NCBI GenBank assembly: GCA_044220955.1
Contig: JBGAQA010000082.1
Location: 1-32,282, forward strand
Direction of reading: 5' to 3'
Length of the DNA: 32,282 nucleotides
Source: Sandaracinaceae bacterium
GTDB taxonomy: Bacteria; Myxococcota_A; Polyangia; Polyangiales; Sandaracinaceae
The translations under genes and the position numbers were made by a program. The notes beneath the pieces are model-generated. The model was not told the DNA's origin, made no database searches, and saw only the letters and a program-made list of their open reading frames with translations. Below are positions 5,464 to 26,418 of this stretch, piece after piece; the stretch's first letter is position 1; the number at the start of each line of letters is the position of its first letter.

Positions 5464-6522
5464 CTAGCGCGTCGCCGGTGGCCGGGCGAGCGCGGGGTCT
5501 CCGAGGCCGGCGTGGAACGCGCGCATGCGCGCCAGGATCCGCGGGAGCGAGAGCGGGAAGGTCATGTGCCCGCCGGGGATCCACTCGATCGGCGGCCGGC
5601 CCCACTCCTCCCACTGCTGCTTCACGAGATCGGCCGTGATGTAGACGTCGTCGGTCGCCTCGACCCAGAGCTGCCTCGCGGGCGCGAGGCGCGGCTTCAT
5701 CGTCCCGAGCCCGAGCCGGCGGAAGAGCGTCTGGCGCGCGGCGCGATCGATCCCGAAGCCCTCGAGGTCGGACTTCATGCGCCACAGGATGGGCGCCTCC
5801 TCGACGGCCTCGCCGAGCTTGAGGTGTCCGATGATGGGCACGATGTAGTCGGGCGTCGGCTCCACGCACGCGAGCGCCATCGTGAGCCCCCCGCCGAGGC
5901 TGATGCCGGTGACGCCGAGCTGCTCGTAGCCGTGCTCCGCCCGCAGCCACGCCATGAGCGTGCGGACGTCGATGACCGACTGCCGCACCGACTCGACGGT
6001 GCGCACGAGGTCGGCGCTCCAGAAGAACTCGCCGTGGAAGAGCGCGCTGCGCGGGTTCCGGCTCCCGTGGAAGGGCAGCTGGATGTGCAGCACGTCCACG
6101 CCGAGCTCGTCGTGCAGGCGGGGCAAGAGGAGCGCCTCCTCGATGCCGGGCCCGGGCTCGAGCCAGCCGTGCACGTAGATCAGCGCGCGCTTGCGGGGCC
6201 CCGAGCGCGGGTGGATCCAGCGCGCCGTCACGCGCTGGTTCAGCCAGTACTCCCCGGCGTGGCGCGCGCGGTAGTGCGGGCAGAGCACGACGTGCTGGCT
6301 GTGCCAGCGCAGCGTCTCGATGACGCGCGGCCCGAGCGCGAGGCGCGGCTTCTTGCGCACGACGTCGCGCGGGACGACCGGCGTCGGGAAGAGCGTCTCG
6401 ATCGGAGCGTCGAGATAGGGCCCGAGGTCGTCCACGGTGTTGACGTGGGCGCCACGGAGCCCGTGCAGGAGGTGGGAGCCGGCGCCCACGACGCGATCGA
6501 CCGCTTCGCCGAAGGAGAGCAT
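5464..6522 (-). CDS. Alpha/beta hydrolase (ABHD18/DUF2048-like)
   Basis: ATG at 6522; oxyanion HGW, LPFHGSR, nucleophile GISLGG, acid DDVY, catalytic GGH. Confidence 0.85.
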   Translation of the reverse strand: MLSFGEAVDRVVGAGSHLLHGLRGAHVNTVDDLGPYLDAPIETLFPTPVVPRDVVRKKPRLALGPRVIETLRWHSQHVVLCPHYRARHAGEYWLNQRVTARWIHPRSGPRKRALIYVHGWLEPGPGIEEALLLPRLHDELGVDVLHIQLPFHGSRNPRSALFHGEFFWSADLVRTVESVRQSVIDVRTLMAWLRAEHGYEQLGVTGISLGGGLTMALACVEPTPDYIVPIIGHLKLGEAVEEAPILWRMKSDLEGFGIDRAARQTLFRRLGLGTMKPRLAPARQLWVEATDDVYITADLVKQQWEEWGRPPIEWIPGGHMTFPLSLPRILARMRAFHAGLGDPALARPPATR

Positions 6523-6582
6523 GCGGCTCGTTGTATCACCGAGGACGATCCGTGCGCGTCCGGACCGTCGAGCGCGCTGGGC

Positions 6583-6738
6583 GAGGGCGAGATCGAGGGC
6601 GAGATCGAAGGCGAGATCGAGATCGAGAGCGAGAGCGAGAGCGAGAGCGAGGGCGAGGGCGAGGGCGAGGGCGAGGCGAGGGCGAGGGCGAGGGCGAGGG
6701 CGAGGGCGAGGGCGAGGGCGAGGGCGAGGGGCGAGCTC
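6583..6738 (+). repeat. Tandem hexamer array (GAGNNC)n, ~25 units, left flank of the four-helix-bundle cassette
   Basis: Blocks of GAGGGC/GAGATC, then GAGAGC x4, GAGGGC x4, a 5-nt slip unit GAGGC, and GAGGGC x8. Confidence 0.95.
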
Positions 6739-6762
6739 CGAGGTCGCATCGGGGTGGGCGCT

Positions 6763-6955
6763 CTGCTCGGGGGTCCTCATCGTGCCCGCGGGCTTGTCGC
6801 GTTCAACCCCGCGCCTGCGGCGCGCCGGTGCTCGCTTCCTCCGGCTCCGCATTCGCGGAGCCTCCGTGCAGCTCCGCTCCGGAGCGACTGCATTCGCAGT
6901 CGCTGGGTTGAGCGCGCCTGCGACCCGCGGGCGGGAAGGGCTGTGCCCCGAGCAG
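6763..6955 (+). ncRNA. Putative structured leader element A (multi-stem; RNA or ssDNA) upstream of a four-helix-bundle gene
   Basis: Stems 6763-6772/6946-6955, 6784-6791/6925-6932, 6798-6809/6905-6916; hairpins 6811-6823, 6843-6862, 6883-6904; same architecture as 7675-7895 with compensatory changes. Confidence 0.6.
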
Positions 6956-6982
6956 GTCGGGGCACCAGCCAGGAGAAGCTCC

Positions 6983-7297
6983 GTGTTGAACATCTATCTC
7001 GTCTCGATTCAGCTCTGCCGCGATGTCCGGGTGATCGGTGAGCACGTCGGGCGCCACGACCGGAACCTGCTCGACCAGCTGCGGCGGGCGGTGACCAGCG
7101 TGCCGCTCAACCTCGCGGAGAGCGACGGCGTGCAGGGCGGCAACCGTCGGCAGCGGCGGCTGACGGCGCTCGGCTCAGCCAAGGAAGTTGGCGCGTGTCT
7201 CGACGTGGCGGAGGCGCTCGGGTACGCGGCGGTGGATCGGACCGTCCGAGAGCGACTGGACCACGTCATCGGCGTGCTCGTGAAGCTGACGCGCTGA
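6983..7297 (+). CDS. Four helix bundle protein (TIGR02436 / 23S rRNA IVS / Avd-like), 104 aa
   Basis: AGGAG RBS at 6971-6975, GTG start; signature DQLRRAVTSVPLNLAE...TALGSAKEV...LDVAEALGY. Confidence 0.9.
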   Translation: MLNIYLVSIQLCRDVRVIGEHVGRHDRNLLDQLRRAVTSVPLNLAESDGVQGGNRRQRRLTALGSAKEVGACLDVAEALGYAAVDRTVRERLDHVIGVLVKLTR

Positions 7298-7304
7298 GAG
7301 ATCA

Positions 7305-7336
7305 CCGAGGCCCGCGGCGACAATCACGGGCCTCGG
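7305..7336. terminator. GC-rich hairpin between convergent four-helix-bundle genes (possible bidirectional terminator or processing site)
   Basis: CCGAGGCCCG (7305-7314) is the perfect reverse complement of CGGGCCTCGG (7327-7336); no U-tract on either side. Confidence 0.5.
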
Positions 7337-7342
7337 CCCTGC

Positions 7343-7657
7343 CTACACGAGCTTGTGCAGCGTCCGCGCGATCCGATCGAGCGCGTCGACCTGCCTCGCG
7401 TCCGCGCTCACGTATCCCATCGCGTCCGCGGTCTCGAGGATGGCGCGGACCTCGTTCGCGCTCCCCATCGCGGTCTCGAACCTCGCGCGCGCGTTCCCGT
7501 TCCGCCGCCACTCCCCTTCCGCGATGTTGAGCGGCACGCTGGTCAGCGCCCGCCGCAGCTGCTTGCCGAGGTCTGCGTCGTGCTGCGCGATCTTGGTGAC
7601 GACGTCGCGCATCTCTCGCGTGATCTGGAGTGCGTCCTTGTAGATGTGCAGGCCCAT
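7343..7657 (-). CDS. Four helix bundle protein (TIGR02436 / 23S rRNA IVS / Avd-like), 104 aa
   Basis: ATG at 7657 with GGAG upstream; signature KQLRRALTSVPLNIAEG...RFETAMGSANEV...LETADAMGY. Confidence 0.92.
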   Translation of the reverse strand: MGLHIYKDALQITREMRDVVTKIAQHDADLGKQLRRALTSVPLNIAEGEWRRNGNARARFETAMGSANEVRAILETADAMGYVSADARQVDALDRIARTLHKLV

Positions 7658-7674
7658 GTTCCGTTCTCCGTTCT

Positions 7675-7895
7675 GCCCGCTCGGGGCACAGCCCCACCTC
7701 CGTCGCGCGCAGCGGCAGTCCACCCTCGGTCCGCGGAGGCGGACCGACGCGAGCGGAGCACCCCGGAGCCACGGCGAGACGTACTTCTCGCCATTCCGGT
7801 GCCCTGGCGAGGAGTGCGAGCACGCGCGCTTCGCGCAGCGAAGCGGGGTGGACGGCCGCGAGCACGACGGCACCATTCTCCAACCCCGAGCGGGC
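7675..7895 (-). ncRNA. Putative structured leader element B, homologous to element A
   Basis: Outer 12-bp stem 7884-7895/7675-7686, GTCCACCC/GGGTGGAC stem (7846-7853/7718-7725) and three internal hairpins; shares motifs GTGCTCGC, GCTCCGCTC and GGGCTGTGCCCCGAGC with element A. Confidence 0.6.
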
Positions 7896-7955
7896 CACCG
7901 GATTTCTCGTCCTCATTCGAGCGGCGAGTCCGGCCGAAGGCCGGAGAGCCCGAGA

Positions 7956-8086
7956 GAGAGCGAGGTCGAGAGCGAGGTCGAGAGCGAGGTCGAGAGCGAG
8001 GTCGAGAGCGAGGTCGAGAGCGAGGTCGAGAGCGAGGTCGAGAGCGAGGTCGAGAGCGAGGTCGAGGTCGAGGTCGAGGTCGAGGC
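7956..8086 (+). repeat. Tandem array (GAGAGCGAGGTC)x9 + (GAGGTC)x3, right flank of the four-helix-bundle cassette
   Basis: Perfect dodecamer higher-order repeat of two GAGNNC hexamers, read directly from the sequence. Confidence 0.97.
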
Positions 8087-8100
8087 GAGCGCGGAGCCCC

Positions 8101-8643
8101 TCAGTGCACCACGTGCTCGTGCACGCTCGCGCCGCCCTCGACGGCCGTGCCGTAGATGTCCGCGAAGCGGAGCGAGCCCGGGCTCTCGCCGAGCGTGAGG
8201 TGCACGTGATCGAGGTACGCGTCGGTCCCCGCGATCGTCAGCGTCGCGCGCGCGGTACAGCCGTGCGGCGCGCGCGCCGTGTGCACCTCCAGGTGTCGCG
8301 ACGAGAGCGCGCGGATCTGGATCAGCATGGTCATGCCGTCCTCTCGCGTCTCGGTGACGCGCTGCGAGCCGACGCCGTATACCGGCCCCTCGAACATGTT
8401 GAGGCCGTGCGTGACGCGGCCGTCCGCGCCGTTCTCGAACTCGCGCCAGTACACCTCCATCGGCGAGCCGCTCGCGGGGTGACAGCTGGTGTCGAGGTGG
8501 ATGCCGTAGTCGACGCGGTTGCGGTCGTCGCTCTTGTCGATGAAGAAGATCGTCGGCACGTCGTGCCGCTCGAACTGCACGTCGGCGCGCGCGATGCCCA
8601 CGACGCCGAGCACGACGAGCGCGATCGTCGTAGCGCGCCTCAT
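8101..8643 (-). CDS. DUF4833-like secreted protein
   Basis: ATG at 8643 overlaps the upstream stop; signal peptide; IFFIDKSDDRNRVDYGIHLD...VYWR...LNMFEGPVYGV pattern. Confidence 0.75.
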   Translation of the reverse strand: MRRATTIALVVLGVVGIARADVQFERHDVPTIFFIDKSDDRNRVDYGIHLDTSCHPASGSPMEVYWREFENGADGRVTHGLNMFEGPVYGVGSQRVTETREDGMTMLIQIRALSSRHLEVHTARAPHGCTARATLTIAGTDAYLDHVHLTLGESPGSLRFADIYGTAVEGGASVHEHVVH

Positions 8644-9146
8644 GGCCGGGTCACCTCGGGCGGTCGGGACCCGTCCAGCGTGCACTCTTCGAAGGCCTCG
8701 CACTCGTCGAGGTTCTCGCCGTAGGGCCCGCCGTCGCAGGGGTGCTCGACCATCGCGAGGCGGCAGGCGACCATCTCGCCGAGCGAGATCGTGCACGGCA
8801 GGCTGCGGGCCGCGGCGGACCAGGCGTCCGGGACGCAGTGGTGCTCGACCACCGCGGCCGTCGACCCATCGGGGCAGCTCGCCGTCGAGCCTTCGAGGTG
8901 CACGTTCCGGTCGAGATACGGACAGAGCGAGACGAAGTCGTCCGGCGTGAGAGCGGCGACCGGCGTCGCCCAGGGCTGCGGCGGCGCCGGGAGCGGGCCG
9001 AGGCGAGCGTGCACCGCCGCGCTGCCCGGCAACGCGGCCTCGGTGCTCGTGGGCGTCGTCTCGTCGGACGGAGGCGGCTCGGAGTGCGCGCACGCGACGA
9101 AGAGGAGCGTGGCGCCGAGGGCGGGAACGCGGTGCGTCGGGCGCAT
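8640..9146 (-). CDS. Cys-rich lipoprotein, hypothetical
   Basis: Lipobox FVAC, 8 further Cys; tightly packed between neighbouring genes. Confidence 0.75.
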   Translation of the reverse strand: MRPTHRVPALGATLLFVACAHSEPPPSDETTPTSTEAALPGSAAVHARLGPLPAPPQPWATPVAALTPDDFVSLCPYLDRNVHLEGSTASCPDGSTAAVVEHHCVPDAWSAAARSLPCTISLGEMVACRLAMVEHPCDGGPYGENLDECEAFEECTLDGSRPPEVTRP

Positions 9147-24795: not shown

Positions 24796-25743
24796 TCAGA
24801 GCGGGCGCGTGAGCACGCTGCCGAGGCCGGCGCCGGCCACGAGGTGCGTGCGGGTCGCGCACGCGCCGACGATCTCTCTCTGATCGCCCTCGCCGAAGTC
24901 GTACGAGGTGAGCGCGCTCTGCCAGGTGCCGTCGGCGCGCTCGAAGACGCCCACGCTCGTCGCCGCCCAGACGCGGCCGCCCTGCGCGCTGACCTGGCGG
25001 AGCTCGTCGCCGAGCGGCGGCGGGATGGCGATCCACTCACGACCGTTCCAGCGCAGGACGATCGGCGTCGCGCCGCGCGCGGACCACGCCCACACCTCCG
25101 ACGCGCTCACGGCGAAGAGGCCTCCGAGCGTGACGTCGGTGCCGCTCGCGCTGCGCGCCCAGGCGCGTCCGTCCCAGTGCATCAGCGTGCCGCCCTGGCC
25201 CGCGGTCCAGAGATCGCCCGGGCCGGTGCCGGCGACGGCCGAGAGGTCGCGCCAGGTGCCGGCGTCGTACGTGCGCAGGTCCGTTCCATCGCGGCGCGCG
25301 ATCCAGCCGCGCCCCACGGCGTACACGTCCGCACCGACCGACGCGAGGCCGCCGAAGGGATCATAGCGACCGGCCGACGCACGCGTCGCGATCGACCACG
25401 CGCTGCCGTCCCAGCTCGCGACGCGTCCGCTCGCCTCGACGAGCACGCCGGTGGGCGTCGCCTCGAGGTGCGTGCCGTACGTGCGGCCCTCGCCGTAGCC
25501 GGGGATCTCCGGGAGCTCGTGCCACGCGCTGCCGTCCCACTCGGCGACCCCGCCGCCCCAGCCGCGCGCGTAGGCGCGATCGGCGGAGCAGGCGACGGCG
25601 TTCACGTCGGTGAGGCGGCGCAGGCGCGAGGTGAGCGACCAGCCGTTCGAGAGCGCGATGGTCTCGCCCTGGGCGAGAGCGAGGGCGGGAGCGAGAGCGA
25701 GAGCGAGAGCGAGAGCGAGAGCGGGTGCGAGAGCGCGGGTCAT
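24796..25743 (-). CDS. Secreted beta-propeller repeat protein (WDGxxW repeats)
   Basis: ATGA overlap; (AL)n signal peptide encoded by hexamer repeats; repeats WDGSAW x2, WDGRAW, WNGREW. Confidence 0.82.
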   Translation of the reverse strand: MTRALAPALALALALALAPALALAQGETIALSNGWSLTSRLRRLTDVNAVACSADRAYARGWGGGVAEWDGSAWHELPEIPGYGEGRTYGTHLEATPTGVLVEASGRVASWDGSAWSIATRASAGRYDPFGGLASVGADVYAVGRGWIARRDGTDLRTYDAGTWRDLSAVAGTGPGDLWTAGQGGTLMHWDGRAWARSASGTDVTLGGLFAVSASEVWAWSARGATPIVLRWNGREWIAIPPPLGDELRQVSAQGGRVWAATSVGVFERADGTWQSALTSYDFGEGDQREIVGACATRTHLVAGAGLGSVLTRPL

Positions 25744-25926
25744 CGGCGCCTCCGCGTGATCGCGAGGGCCGCGAGGGCGAGGGCGAGGGCGAGGGCGGGC
25801 GTGGTCGGACCGGCGCCAGCGGCGGCACAGCTGCACGAGGGCGAGGGCGAGGTCGAGGTCGAGGTCGAGGTCGAGGTCGAGGTCGAGGTCGAGCGCGAGG
25901 GCGAGGGCGAGGGCGAGGGCGAGGGC
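25675..25926 (+). repeat. Three intragenic GAGNNC hexamer runs (25675-25734, 25773-25796, 25837-25926)
   Basis: GAGAGC/GAGGGC/GAGGTC units, read on the minus strand as (Ala-Leu)n, (Ser-Pro)n and (Thr-Ser)n. Confidence 0.92.
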
Positions 25927-26357
25927 GAGCCCGTCGGCAGGCTCGGAAGTTCATCGGGGACGCAGAAGCTCGCCTCGCGGCAGCTCGGATCGCCCGTCAG
26001 CGTCCCGGCCGTGGGCGGCGGCGGCTCCTCGTCGCCGCGGCACGCGGCTGCCGGCTCGCAGCTCCCGACGACCACATCGACCTCGTCGGGCGAGGGCGGC
26101 GGATCGCGGAATTGCCCGAGGCCGCCCGGCGGGATGCTCGCGCGCCGGGTGCACACGCGGTACGCGCGGCAGTGGCCGCCGGTGCTCGCGCAGTCCGCGT
26201 CGCTCGCGCACACGGCCGGCTCGCACCACTGTCCCGAGTGCGACGAGCGCCCGACGGCGCCGGGCGGGCAGGCCGGCGGGCCGTCGATCGCATCGGCGCG
26301 GGCCGCGAGCGGCGAGACCGTGAACAGCAGGACGAGCAGTGTTGCGGCGCGCTTCAT
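25740..26357 (-). CDS. Cys-rich surface protein with MYXO-CTERM sorting signal
   Basis: Signal peptide MKRAATLLVLL...ARA; Cys-rich domain; S/P/T linker; SCSCAAAG + hydrophobic helix + RRRR. Confidence 0.85.
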   Translation of the reverse strand: MKRAATLLVLLFTVSPLAARADAIDGPPACPPGAVGRSSHSGQWCEPAVCASDADCASTGGHCRAYRVCTRRASIPPGGLGQFRDPPPSPDEVDVVVGSCEPAAACRGDEEPPPPTAGTLTGDPSCREASFCVPDELPSLPTGSPSPSPSPSPSRSTSTSTSTSTSTSTSPSPSCSCAAAGAGPTTPALALALALAALAITRRRR

Positions 26358-26418
26358 GGGTGGTCGGACCCGGCCGACGCCTACGGAGCTTGGCCGAGAG
26401 GTCACGCGCGCCATCGGG

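Follow-up and report, generated by a model that had tools for sequence, protein, structure and literature searches.

The window analysed here is the 32,282-nucleotide stretch formed by positions 1 to 32,282 of contig JBGAQA010000082.1 of a Sandaracinaceae bacterium (GenBank assembly GCA_044220955.1; 7.5 Mb in 301 contigs, 88% complete). It contains two short convergent genes, A and B, which encode four-helix-bundle proteins of the PF05635 (23S_rRNA_IVP) / TIGR02436 family and lie between two tandem arrays of a six-nucleotide unit. Directly 5′ of each gene, on the sense strand, is a branched structure that we call leader A or leader B. A leader and its gene form the unit of a multi-copy cassette that has no reverse transcriptase, sits in repeat arrays and occurs in one myxobacterial order; in the window, two such units meet at their 3′ ends, with one terminator-like hairpin between them that both share. 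In our judgment, the leader very probably functions as a structured RNA.

The elements of the locus are listed below. Bit scores refer to two covariance models, R1, which was built from three B-type copies and spans P2 to P2′ in 154 positions, and R2, which was built from 39 copies; both exclude the outer helix P1.

6583-6725: tandem (GAGNNC)n array of period 6 that bounds leader A on its outer side
6733-6758, + strand: 5′ flank conserved among A-type leaders and adjoining the array, with a small CCGA...TCGG hairpin
6759-6959, + strand: leader A, as folded (R1 43.3 bits, R2 78.2 bits)
6943-6965, + strand: hairpin of A-type leaders only, GTGCCCCGA-GCAGG-TCGGGGCAC, whose 5′ arm overlaps the 3′ strand of P1
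6983-7297, + strand: gene A, 104 amino acids, GTG start, GGAG at 6972-6975; PF05635 / TIGR02436 four-helix-bundle protein
7305-7336, no strand assigned: GC-rich hairpin inside the 45-nt spacer that separates convergent genes A and B
7343-7657, − strand: gene B, 104 amino acids; PF05635 / TIGR02436 four-helix-bundle protein
7673-7897, − strand: leader B, as folded (R1 69.1 bits, R2 86.6 bits)
7898-7950, − strand: conserved 5′ flank of B-type leaders, with the hairpin TCCGGCC-TTC-GGCCGGA at 7929-7945
7956-8081: second tandem (GAGNNC)n array of period 6, bounding leader B on its outer side and oriented like the array at 6583-6725

Architecture of the leaders and their genes

Leaders A and B are 76% identical over 301 alignment columns, and their minimum-energy folds are alike in architecture. 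The same architecture is found in the folds of nine further copies. It is composed of the following parts.

Leader A helices, + strand: P1 6763-6772/6946-6955; P2 6784-6793/6924-6932; P3 6799-6809/6905-6915
Leader A junction parts, + strand: H1 6810-6824; central rod P4 with UC/UCC loops 6825-6882; H3 6883-6904
Leader B helices, − strand: P1 7895-7884/7686-7675; P2 7871-7862/7708-7700; P3 7859-7846/7725-7712
Leader B junction parts, − strand: H1 7845-7827; central rod P4 7826-7748; H3 7747-7726

The outer helix P1 is followed by an asymmetric internal loop, the 3′ side of which contains the conserved purines GGUGGGG. Together, P1, P2 and P3 make up an interrupted stem of about 35 bp, which closes a three-way junction bearing hairpin H1, the rod P4 and the variable hairpin H3. 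The rod contains an internal-loop motif in which 5′-GC-UC-GC stands opposite 5′-GC-UCC-GC, with a U.U mismatch adjacent to it. This UC/UCC motif occurs two to three times, evenly spaced along the rod, and the B type has another between P2 and P3.

A preliminary description, made from the sequence alone, had listed nine items in the same order in both copies, and every one of them is where it had been placed: for instance, CTGCTCGGGG at 6763-6772 pairs with CCCCGAGCAG at 6946-6955, and the 16-mer common to both leaders is at 6938-6953 and 7679-7694. Two of the items, GTGCTCGC and GCTCCGCTC, had been taken for conserved linkers. The strings are indeed conserved, but they are not linkers, both being strands of the internal-loop motif of rod P4. 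The structure proposed for copy B is likewise present, but its coordinates had been drawn too short, for a further covarying hairpin is located at 7929-7945 (−).

Both leaders fold more stably than shuffled sequence. With 200 dinucleotide shuffles per copy as controls, leader A (6755-6990, + strand) folds at −147.0 kcal/mol while its shuffles average −120.1 (standard deviation 4.9; z −5.51), and leader B (7650-7905, − strand) at −152.8 kcal/mol against −130.7 (standard deviation 5.5; z −4.01), with 0/200 shuffles as good in either case.

The conserved flanks extend the structured region in 5′ direction. The stretch at 6733-6758 also precedes the A-type copies on contig C247 and, with a compensatory CCGG...CCGG, on C105. 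The hairpin at 7929-7945 is conserved in all B copies, and in the B2 subtype both arms are shortened by two base pairs (TCCCC-TTC-GGGGA), which suggests that the RNA begins here or further 5′. At the 3′ side of leader A, the hairpin at 6943-6965 and P1 are mutually exclusive because they share an arm. This hairpin beats P1 in the minimum-energy fold of leader A, is weakened by a C.A mismatch in the other A copies and is absent from the B type.

The gene A product matches PF05635 with an E-value of 1.5e-11 (44.9 bits) and the gene B product with 1.5e-16 (61 bits), the Pfam cut-off being 33.8 bits. The solved structure nearest to the gene B product is 2gsc (E 5.3e-6). Neither protein matches any defence-system family in PADLOC. 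All four convergent pairs of the genome (4/4) have a spacer of exactly 45 nt with the GC-rich hairpin (−23.9 to −38.0 kcal/mol), which looks like a bidirectional terminator. A simple terminator scan of 6400-8200 found no terminator with a T-run, and it missed the spacer hairpin at 7305-7336 because this hairpin has none.

Covariation, strand and distribution of the leader family

Fifteen matches to PF05635 are present in the genome, and eleven leaders were found in it by an R1 search together with inspection of upstream DNA, at 36-165 bits, with nothing unrelated above 20 bits. All of these leaders (11/11) precede a PF05635 gene on the same strand. Three of the remaining PF05635 matches are cut by contig ends and one, on contig C40, retains only the last ~30 nt of a leader. 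The latter unit (C40:14380-15066) comprises a B2-type gene upstream of which, after a hexamer array, a sequence resembling a lipoprotein signal peptide replaces the leader; it may be a recombination product. The convergent A→/←B pair recurs on contigs C282, C247, C159 and C105.

The leaders fall into subtypes A, A2, B1, B2 and C. Entire helices are altered between them, H1 can be missing, and H3 can contain an additional hairpin of 40 nt. In the B2 leader at C247:46383-46615, this 40-nt insertion is of lower GC content and forms a perfect extended hairpin. The covariance models score the hairpin as an insert, with little loss of score. From P1 to P1′ the copies measure 199, 201, 202, 206, 217 or 225 nt, and hairpins are gained and lost among them; the leader is therefore non-coding. 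For the same reasons (lengths that differ by non-multiples of three, gain and loss of whole hairpins) we rejected a coding reading of leader B, for which an open reading frame (ORF) at 7302-7916 (−) had been a candidate.

Aligned to R1, the eleven copies of this genome form standard pairs in 95.1% of 547 cells, and 36/55 pairs change on both sides. When pairing partners were slid by one to three columns, this fraction dropped to 34-49%, and 0/500 shuffles reached the observed value in any of five measures. The larger set of 39 copies (36 distinct, from nine genomes) gave 94.8% of 1804 cells paired and compensatory changes in 51/55 pairs, compared to 32-49% for slid columns and again 0/500 shuffles in any of the five measures, which bears out the earlier reading of selection on structure. 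The slid columns are a fairer comparison than the shuffles. Furthermore, RNAalifold recovered P3 with compensatory changes from a plain MAFFT alignment that involved no fit to a model. P1 was assessed by duplex folding of the flanks, and it too covaries across genera: its two strands read UCGGGG/CCCCGA, UUCGGGGG/CCCCCGAA and UUCGCGGG/CCCGCGAA, with UUCCGGGC/GCCCGGAA as a further variant besides UUCGCGCG/CGCGCGA.

The paired cells also identify the strand on which the fold is selected. Among the 1804 cells, G.U or U.G combinations number 132 and A.C or C.A combinations 23, and five positions have an invariant U.G. Selection thus acts on the fold of the gene's sense strand, as expected for RNA, and folding of a single DNA strand is less likely.

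The preliminary description had proposed a covariance-model search of genomes. The searches score 21-74 first-look candidates per genome, so that all counts are lower bounds. R1 has matches in 10/41 genomes of relatives, the own genome included, and in 8/24 within the same family. The complete genomes G007 and G023 of the same family (10-11 Mb) carry 6-7 copies of the motif. Within the order, R2 has matches in 15/101 genomes sampled, which represent seven families; in a sample of the phylum it has matches in 5/151 genomes, all five from the same order, and in about 126 sampled genomes outside the order it has none. In 21/26 R1 matches in relatives and 16/21 R2 matches in the order, the end of the model is followed after 20-75 nt by a PF05635 gene in the same orientation. 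Half of the ten matches that lack it lie at contig ends, two of these showing the first codons of the gene; the others are one decayed copy and four with no gene on that strand, two of which are weak. The decayed copy (L072, G003:C320:949-1115) is an intact A-type leader behind which the gene breaks off after five codons and gives way to unrelated sequence. PF05635 genes themselves are present in 47/151 sampled genomes of the phylum, in up to 19 copies.

One genome of another family of the order (G032, 4.2 Mb) contains at least seven convergent PF05635 pairs with 45-nt spacers, situated beside (CTGNCN)n/(CAGNGN)n hexamer arrays, and R2 has no match at these pairs. In the one pair examined (C6:419400-421300), a near-perfect hairpin of 24-31 bp replaces the branched leader, and its 3′ arm includes the ribosome-binding site.

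A tree of the PF05635 proteins (65 rows, 105 columns, poorly resolved) separates an A from a B clade and matches the B1 and B2 leader subtypes; it also places the pairs of genomes G032 and G069 in two distinct paralogue clades. This agreement between protein clades and leader subtypes is co-inheritance and no evidence of binding.

The leader family is apparently undescribed. An Rfam 15 scan of 6300-8300 (4227 models, permissive E-value) returned three matches at chance level, with 14.3-22.3 bits and E-values of 2-9.5 against gathering scores of 50-99, so that, as had been supposed, no named family is near its gathering score. HgcC was the only one of the three to touch leader A and was dismissed as chance (14.8 bits, gathering score 50). 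Nor do the copies behave as dispersed palindromic repeats of the repetitive extragenic palindromic (REP) or MITE type, and the preliminary description had not recognised a REP in them either: they are tied to a PF05635 gene in 11/11 cases in this genome and in 37/47 of those examined elsewhere. Full-text searches on PF05635, intervening-sequence (IVS) and Avd-like proteins and on Polyangia repeats, with subscription journals outside their coverage, yielded no description of such a leader or cassette.

Repeat arrays and cassette boundaries

Hexamer arrays of the form GAGNNC/GNNCTC number about 226 in the genome, comprise 4-36 units each and are in many cases located at contig ends. Within the window they occupy 91-206, 6583-6725, 7956-8081 and 25693-25932. 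The arrays are thus not specific to the cassettes, though cassettes adjoin arrays. Arrays of period 6 are also present in related genera, where they are built from other units. In eight genomes, an array is present within 450 nt upstream of 16/19 single units and downstream of 12/19, the sequence of its unit varying by genome. Ten single units have arrays on both sides, which are clearly inverted in four cases, direct in one and of unclear orientation by this measure in five; in the four inverted cases, 57-84% of the downstream 6-mers are reverse complements of upstream 6-mers. The two arrays that bound the cassette in the window are direct, both reading GAGNNC on the + strand.

Beyond the arrays, the neighbours of the cassette are a gene for an ABHD18-like hydrolase and a DUF4833 gene, both on the − strand. 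The protein of the left neighbour occurs in one of five genomes of the same genus, at a contig start, with different genes upstream. Neither the unit nor the cassette contigs were found to encode a transposase, integrase or reverse transcriptase; the four matches to the reverse-transcriptase family PF00078 in the genome are on contigs C290, C263, C167 and C111, none of which carries a cassette.

Two comparisons inform on the extent and age of the unit. In a related genome, the array-to-array stretch 1134-2377 of L070 is duplicated elsewhere at 78% identity, and the duplicated unit therefore includes the arrays. One cassette of genome G007 has an ortholog in G023 with 87-93% identity, both flanks included; at least that cassette is therefore old and not recently mobile. 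In activated-sludge metagenomes, the summed depth over the arrays reaches hundreds of times the value of the flanking genes; over the cassette, summed metagenome depth is 10-40 times the value of the flanks. Contigs of one DNA run join 6508 to 8063 and 6121 to 8067, skipping 1554 and 1945 nt, with only 21 matching letters on one side and with ends that lie in repeat arrays. We did not count these joints as a cassette-less allele, as a repeat artefact is possible.

Hexamer arrays can also be coding. At 25500-26400 (−) of the window, an array lies in a gene that starts with MTRALAPALALALALALAPALALAQ... and encodes a run of (Leu-Ala)n resembling a signal peptide. The preceding gene ends in a Pro/Ser and Ser/Thr repeat linker, SCSC, a hydrophobic stretch ALALALALAALAI and RRRR, a tail that we take to resemble the MYXO-CTERM sorting signal.

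Proposed function of the leader, and related systems

We read the element as the structured 5′ leader RNA of an IVS-like cassette and, probably, as a binding platform for the cassette's own oligomeric, RNA-binding protein, a combined reading that we consider evenly poised between right and wrong. Its functional component taken by itself, the binding of the gene's own product, is proposed tentatively and by analogy. The leader would be transcribed with the gene and act in cis on the transcript of the cassette. Its unpaired pyrimidines, located in two to four loops at even intervals, would constitute a multi-site platform for the oligomeric gene product, and the outcome would be either feedback control or the first step in the assembly of an RNA-protein particle. 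The long P1-P3 stem may, in addition, be a processing or stability element.

Ribosomal-protein leaders are autoregulatory leaders of genes that encode RNA-binding proteins. Like them, the cassette leader has a conserved and covarying structure and immediately precedes, on the sense strand, a gene for a protein of an RNA-binding family; this likeness suggests feedback by the gene's own product. It differs from them in that the encoded protein is no ribosomal protein and in that the leader exists in many copies, each accompanying its gene as a cassette; mimicry of a primary target is not known.

The platform is favored because a homologous protein, Avd of diversity-generating retroelements (DGRs), grips unpaired bases of a stem-loop and because the leader has repeated unpaired pyrimidines. 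According to a study on a Bordetella phage DGR (bioRxiv 10.1101/2023.10.23.563531), an 11-bp RNA stem-loop touches every one of the five protomers of the Avd pentamer, and its flipped-out bases are held in crevices between protomers. Avd recognizes unpaired, flipped-out bases in a G-C-rich stem, and the leader has its repeated unpaired pyrimidines in G-C stems. In both systems, a four-helix-bundle protein of the same homology is encoded beside a structured RNA in cis. Unlike in DGRs, there is no reverse transcriptase on any cassette contig, no template and variable repeat differing at adenines was noted, with no search aimed at such a pair, and the leader, for which binding is inferred only, is upstream of the gene, about 200 nt long and branched.

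The second relative is the intervening sequence of 23S rRNA. According to PMC4990558, IVSs that bear an ORF typically have one of the PF05635 family and are excised by RNase III; an example given there is the 428-nt IVS in helix 45 of the Coxiella burnetii 23S rRNA, which has an S23p ORF. The cassette resembles such IVSs in that its ORFs belong to PF05635, in that it is a small, selfish-looking unit whose ORF is tied to long RNA stems, and in that inverted arrays can enclose the ORF in related single units. In contrast to an IVS, it does not reside in helix 25 or 45 (no rRNA match was found in 6300-8300, and its neighbors are the hydrolase and DUF4833 genes), it has a covarying three-way-junction leader 5′ of the ORF instead of a simple stem around it, and in the window it consists of two convergent units between direct arrays, with no terminal inverted repeats enclosing an ORF.

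Several observations weigh against the platform reading or against the data on which it is built. The covariation alignments were fitted to the structure of a model and the copies are kin or paralogues, which inflates the shuffle statistics. The motif GYGCTCGS has 87 matches in the window where 61 are expected and the UC/UCC string is common in GC-rich DNA, so that the string is informative only through its place in the fold. The fold does not cover the ribosome-binding site in either the A or the B type, and simple occlusion is not evident. No sigma-70-like promoter was found in 6400-8200. Contigs on 5900-8700 from the one metatranscriptome run with a small share of the window, which by their nature cannot show absence, cover neither leader; they comprise parts of the neighbor genes, a piece of gene A with eight mismatches, and arrays. 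Finally, multi-copy spread, contig-end positions and repeat arrays would fit mobile DNA as well.

The last point is the core of an explanation at the DNA level, in which a mobile cassette has the structure as its folded single-stranded end or as the site where it recombines, comparable to those of integrons (attC) or IS200/IS605 elements, and in which this structure is recognized during spread into arrays. At least eleven copies, many of them at contig ends, the duplication of a whole array-to-array unit in a related genome (78% identity over 1134-2377 of L070) and the metagenome depth of 10-40 times that of the flanks are consistent with it. It nonetheless appears very unlikely to us, given that the unit and the cassette contigs lack any transposase, integrase or reverse transcriptase, that the orientation of the leader to the gene is fixed, that the excess of G.U pairs (132 vs 23) and the fixed U.G pairs favor RNA, and that one cassette is orthologous between two species, flanks included, and thus was not recently mobile. 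A small-molecule riboswitch controlling the four-helix-bundle gene could account for a conserved multi-stem junction with invariant unpaired nucleotides and for the A-type hairpin that competes with P1. Across the types, neither a terminator nor an alternative fold that sequesters the ribosome-binding site is conserved. The competing hairpin, however, is absent from the B type, H1 and H3 can be lost or gain 40 nt, Rfam has no match, and the only associated gene encodes a protein of a nucleic-acid-binding family from a selfish-looking cassette, not one of metabolism or transport; we regard a riboswitch as scarcely credible.

Two further alternatives keep the leader an RNA and assign it another task. 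As an IVS-like processing or stability element, the P1-P3 stem, with paired inverted arrays in single units, would be a substrate of RNase III, and cleavage would free the cassette RNA from read-through transcripts and leave a protective 5′ structure. A PF05635 ORF typical of RNase III-excised IVSs (PMC4990558), the failure to find a promoter in 6400-8200, the inverted arrays around four of the ten single units with arrays on both sides and the 24-31-bp near-perfect hairpin in the place of the leader in G032 agree with this. The arrays in the window are direct, however, an RNase III stem needs neither conserved junction loops nor fixed wobble pairs, and the compensatory changes preserve pairing within each leader and not between leader A and the antisense strand of leader B; we judge such an element improbable as the explanation. 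The leader could, alternatively, be a functional RNA subunit: released from the transcript by cleavage, it would combine with the A and B proteins into a stable particle that acts on other nucleic acids, with no reverse transcriptase involved. A three-way-junction fold with conserved loops exceeds the needs of a simple operator, pairs of two paralogue types recur (the A and B clades here, two clades in G032 and G069), and Avd works within an RNA-protein particle (bioRxiv 10.1101/2023.10.23.563531). A discrete stable RNA and processing sites are without support, and the leader invariably lies just 5′ of the gene, 20-75 nt away, as an untranslated region would, so we consider this subunit unlikely. 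An extended version, which we put forward as speculation that is probably wrong, makes the leader the dedicated RNA component of an Avd-like ribonucleoprotein that is free-living and needs no reverse transcriptase: the paralogous proteins A and B would each gather on the evenly spaced UC/UCC loops of their own leader, and the particle would be released from read-through transcripts in the manner of an IVS and would maintain or spread the cassette in arrays. If it were true, rRNA IVSs, the Avd-RNA modules of DGRs and these cassettes would be one lineage of RNA-protein elements.

The platform for the gene's own protein is the reading we prefer, and the leader has a significance for the protein family as such. 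PF05635/TIGR02436 proteins are very common and, outside DGRs, without known function, and the ORFs of rRNA IVSs have been puzzling since their discovery. The leader constitutes a new family for RNA databases, for which two working covariance models are available, and the cassettes tie PF05635 genes to abundant period-6 arrays of unexplained biology. A large, strongly covarying RNA that travels with the gene is a first testable partner for the PF05635 family.

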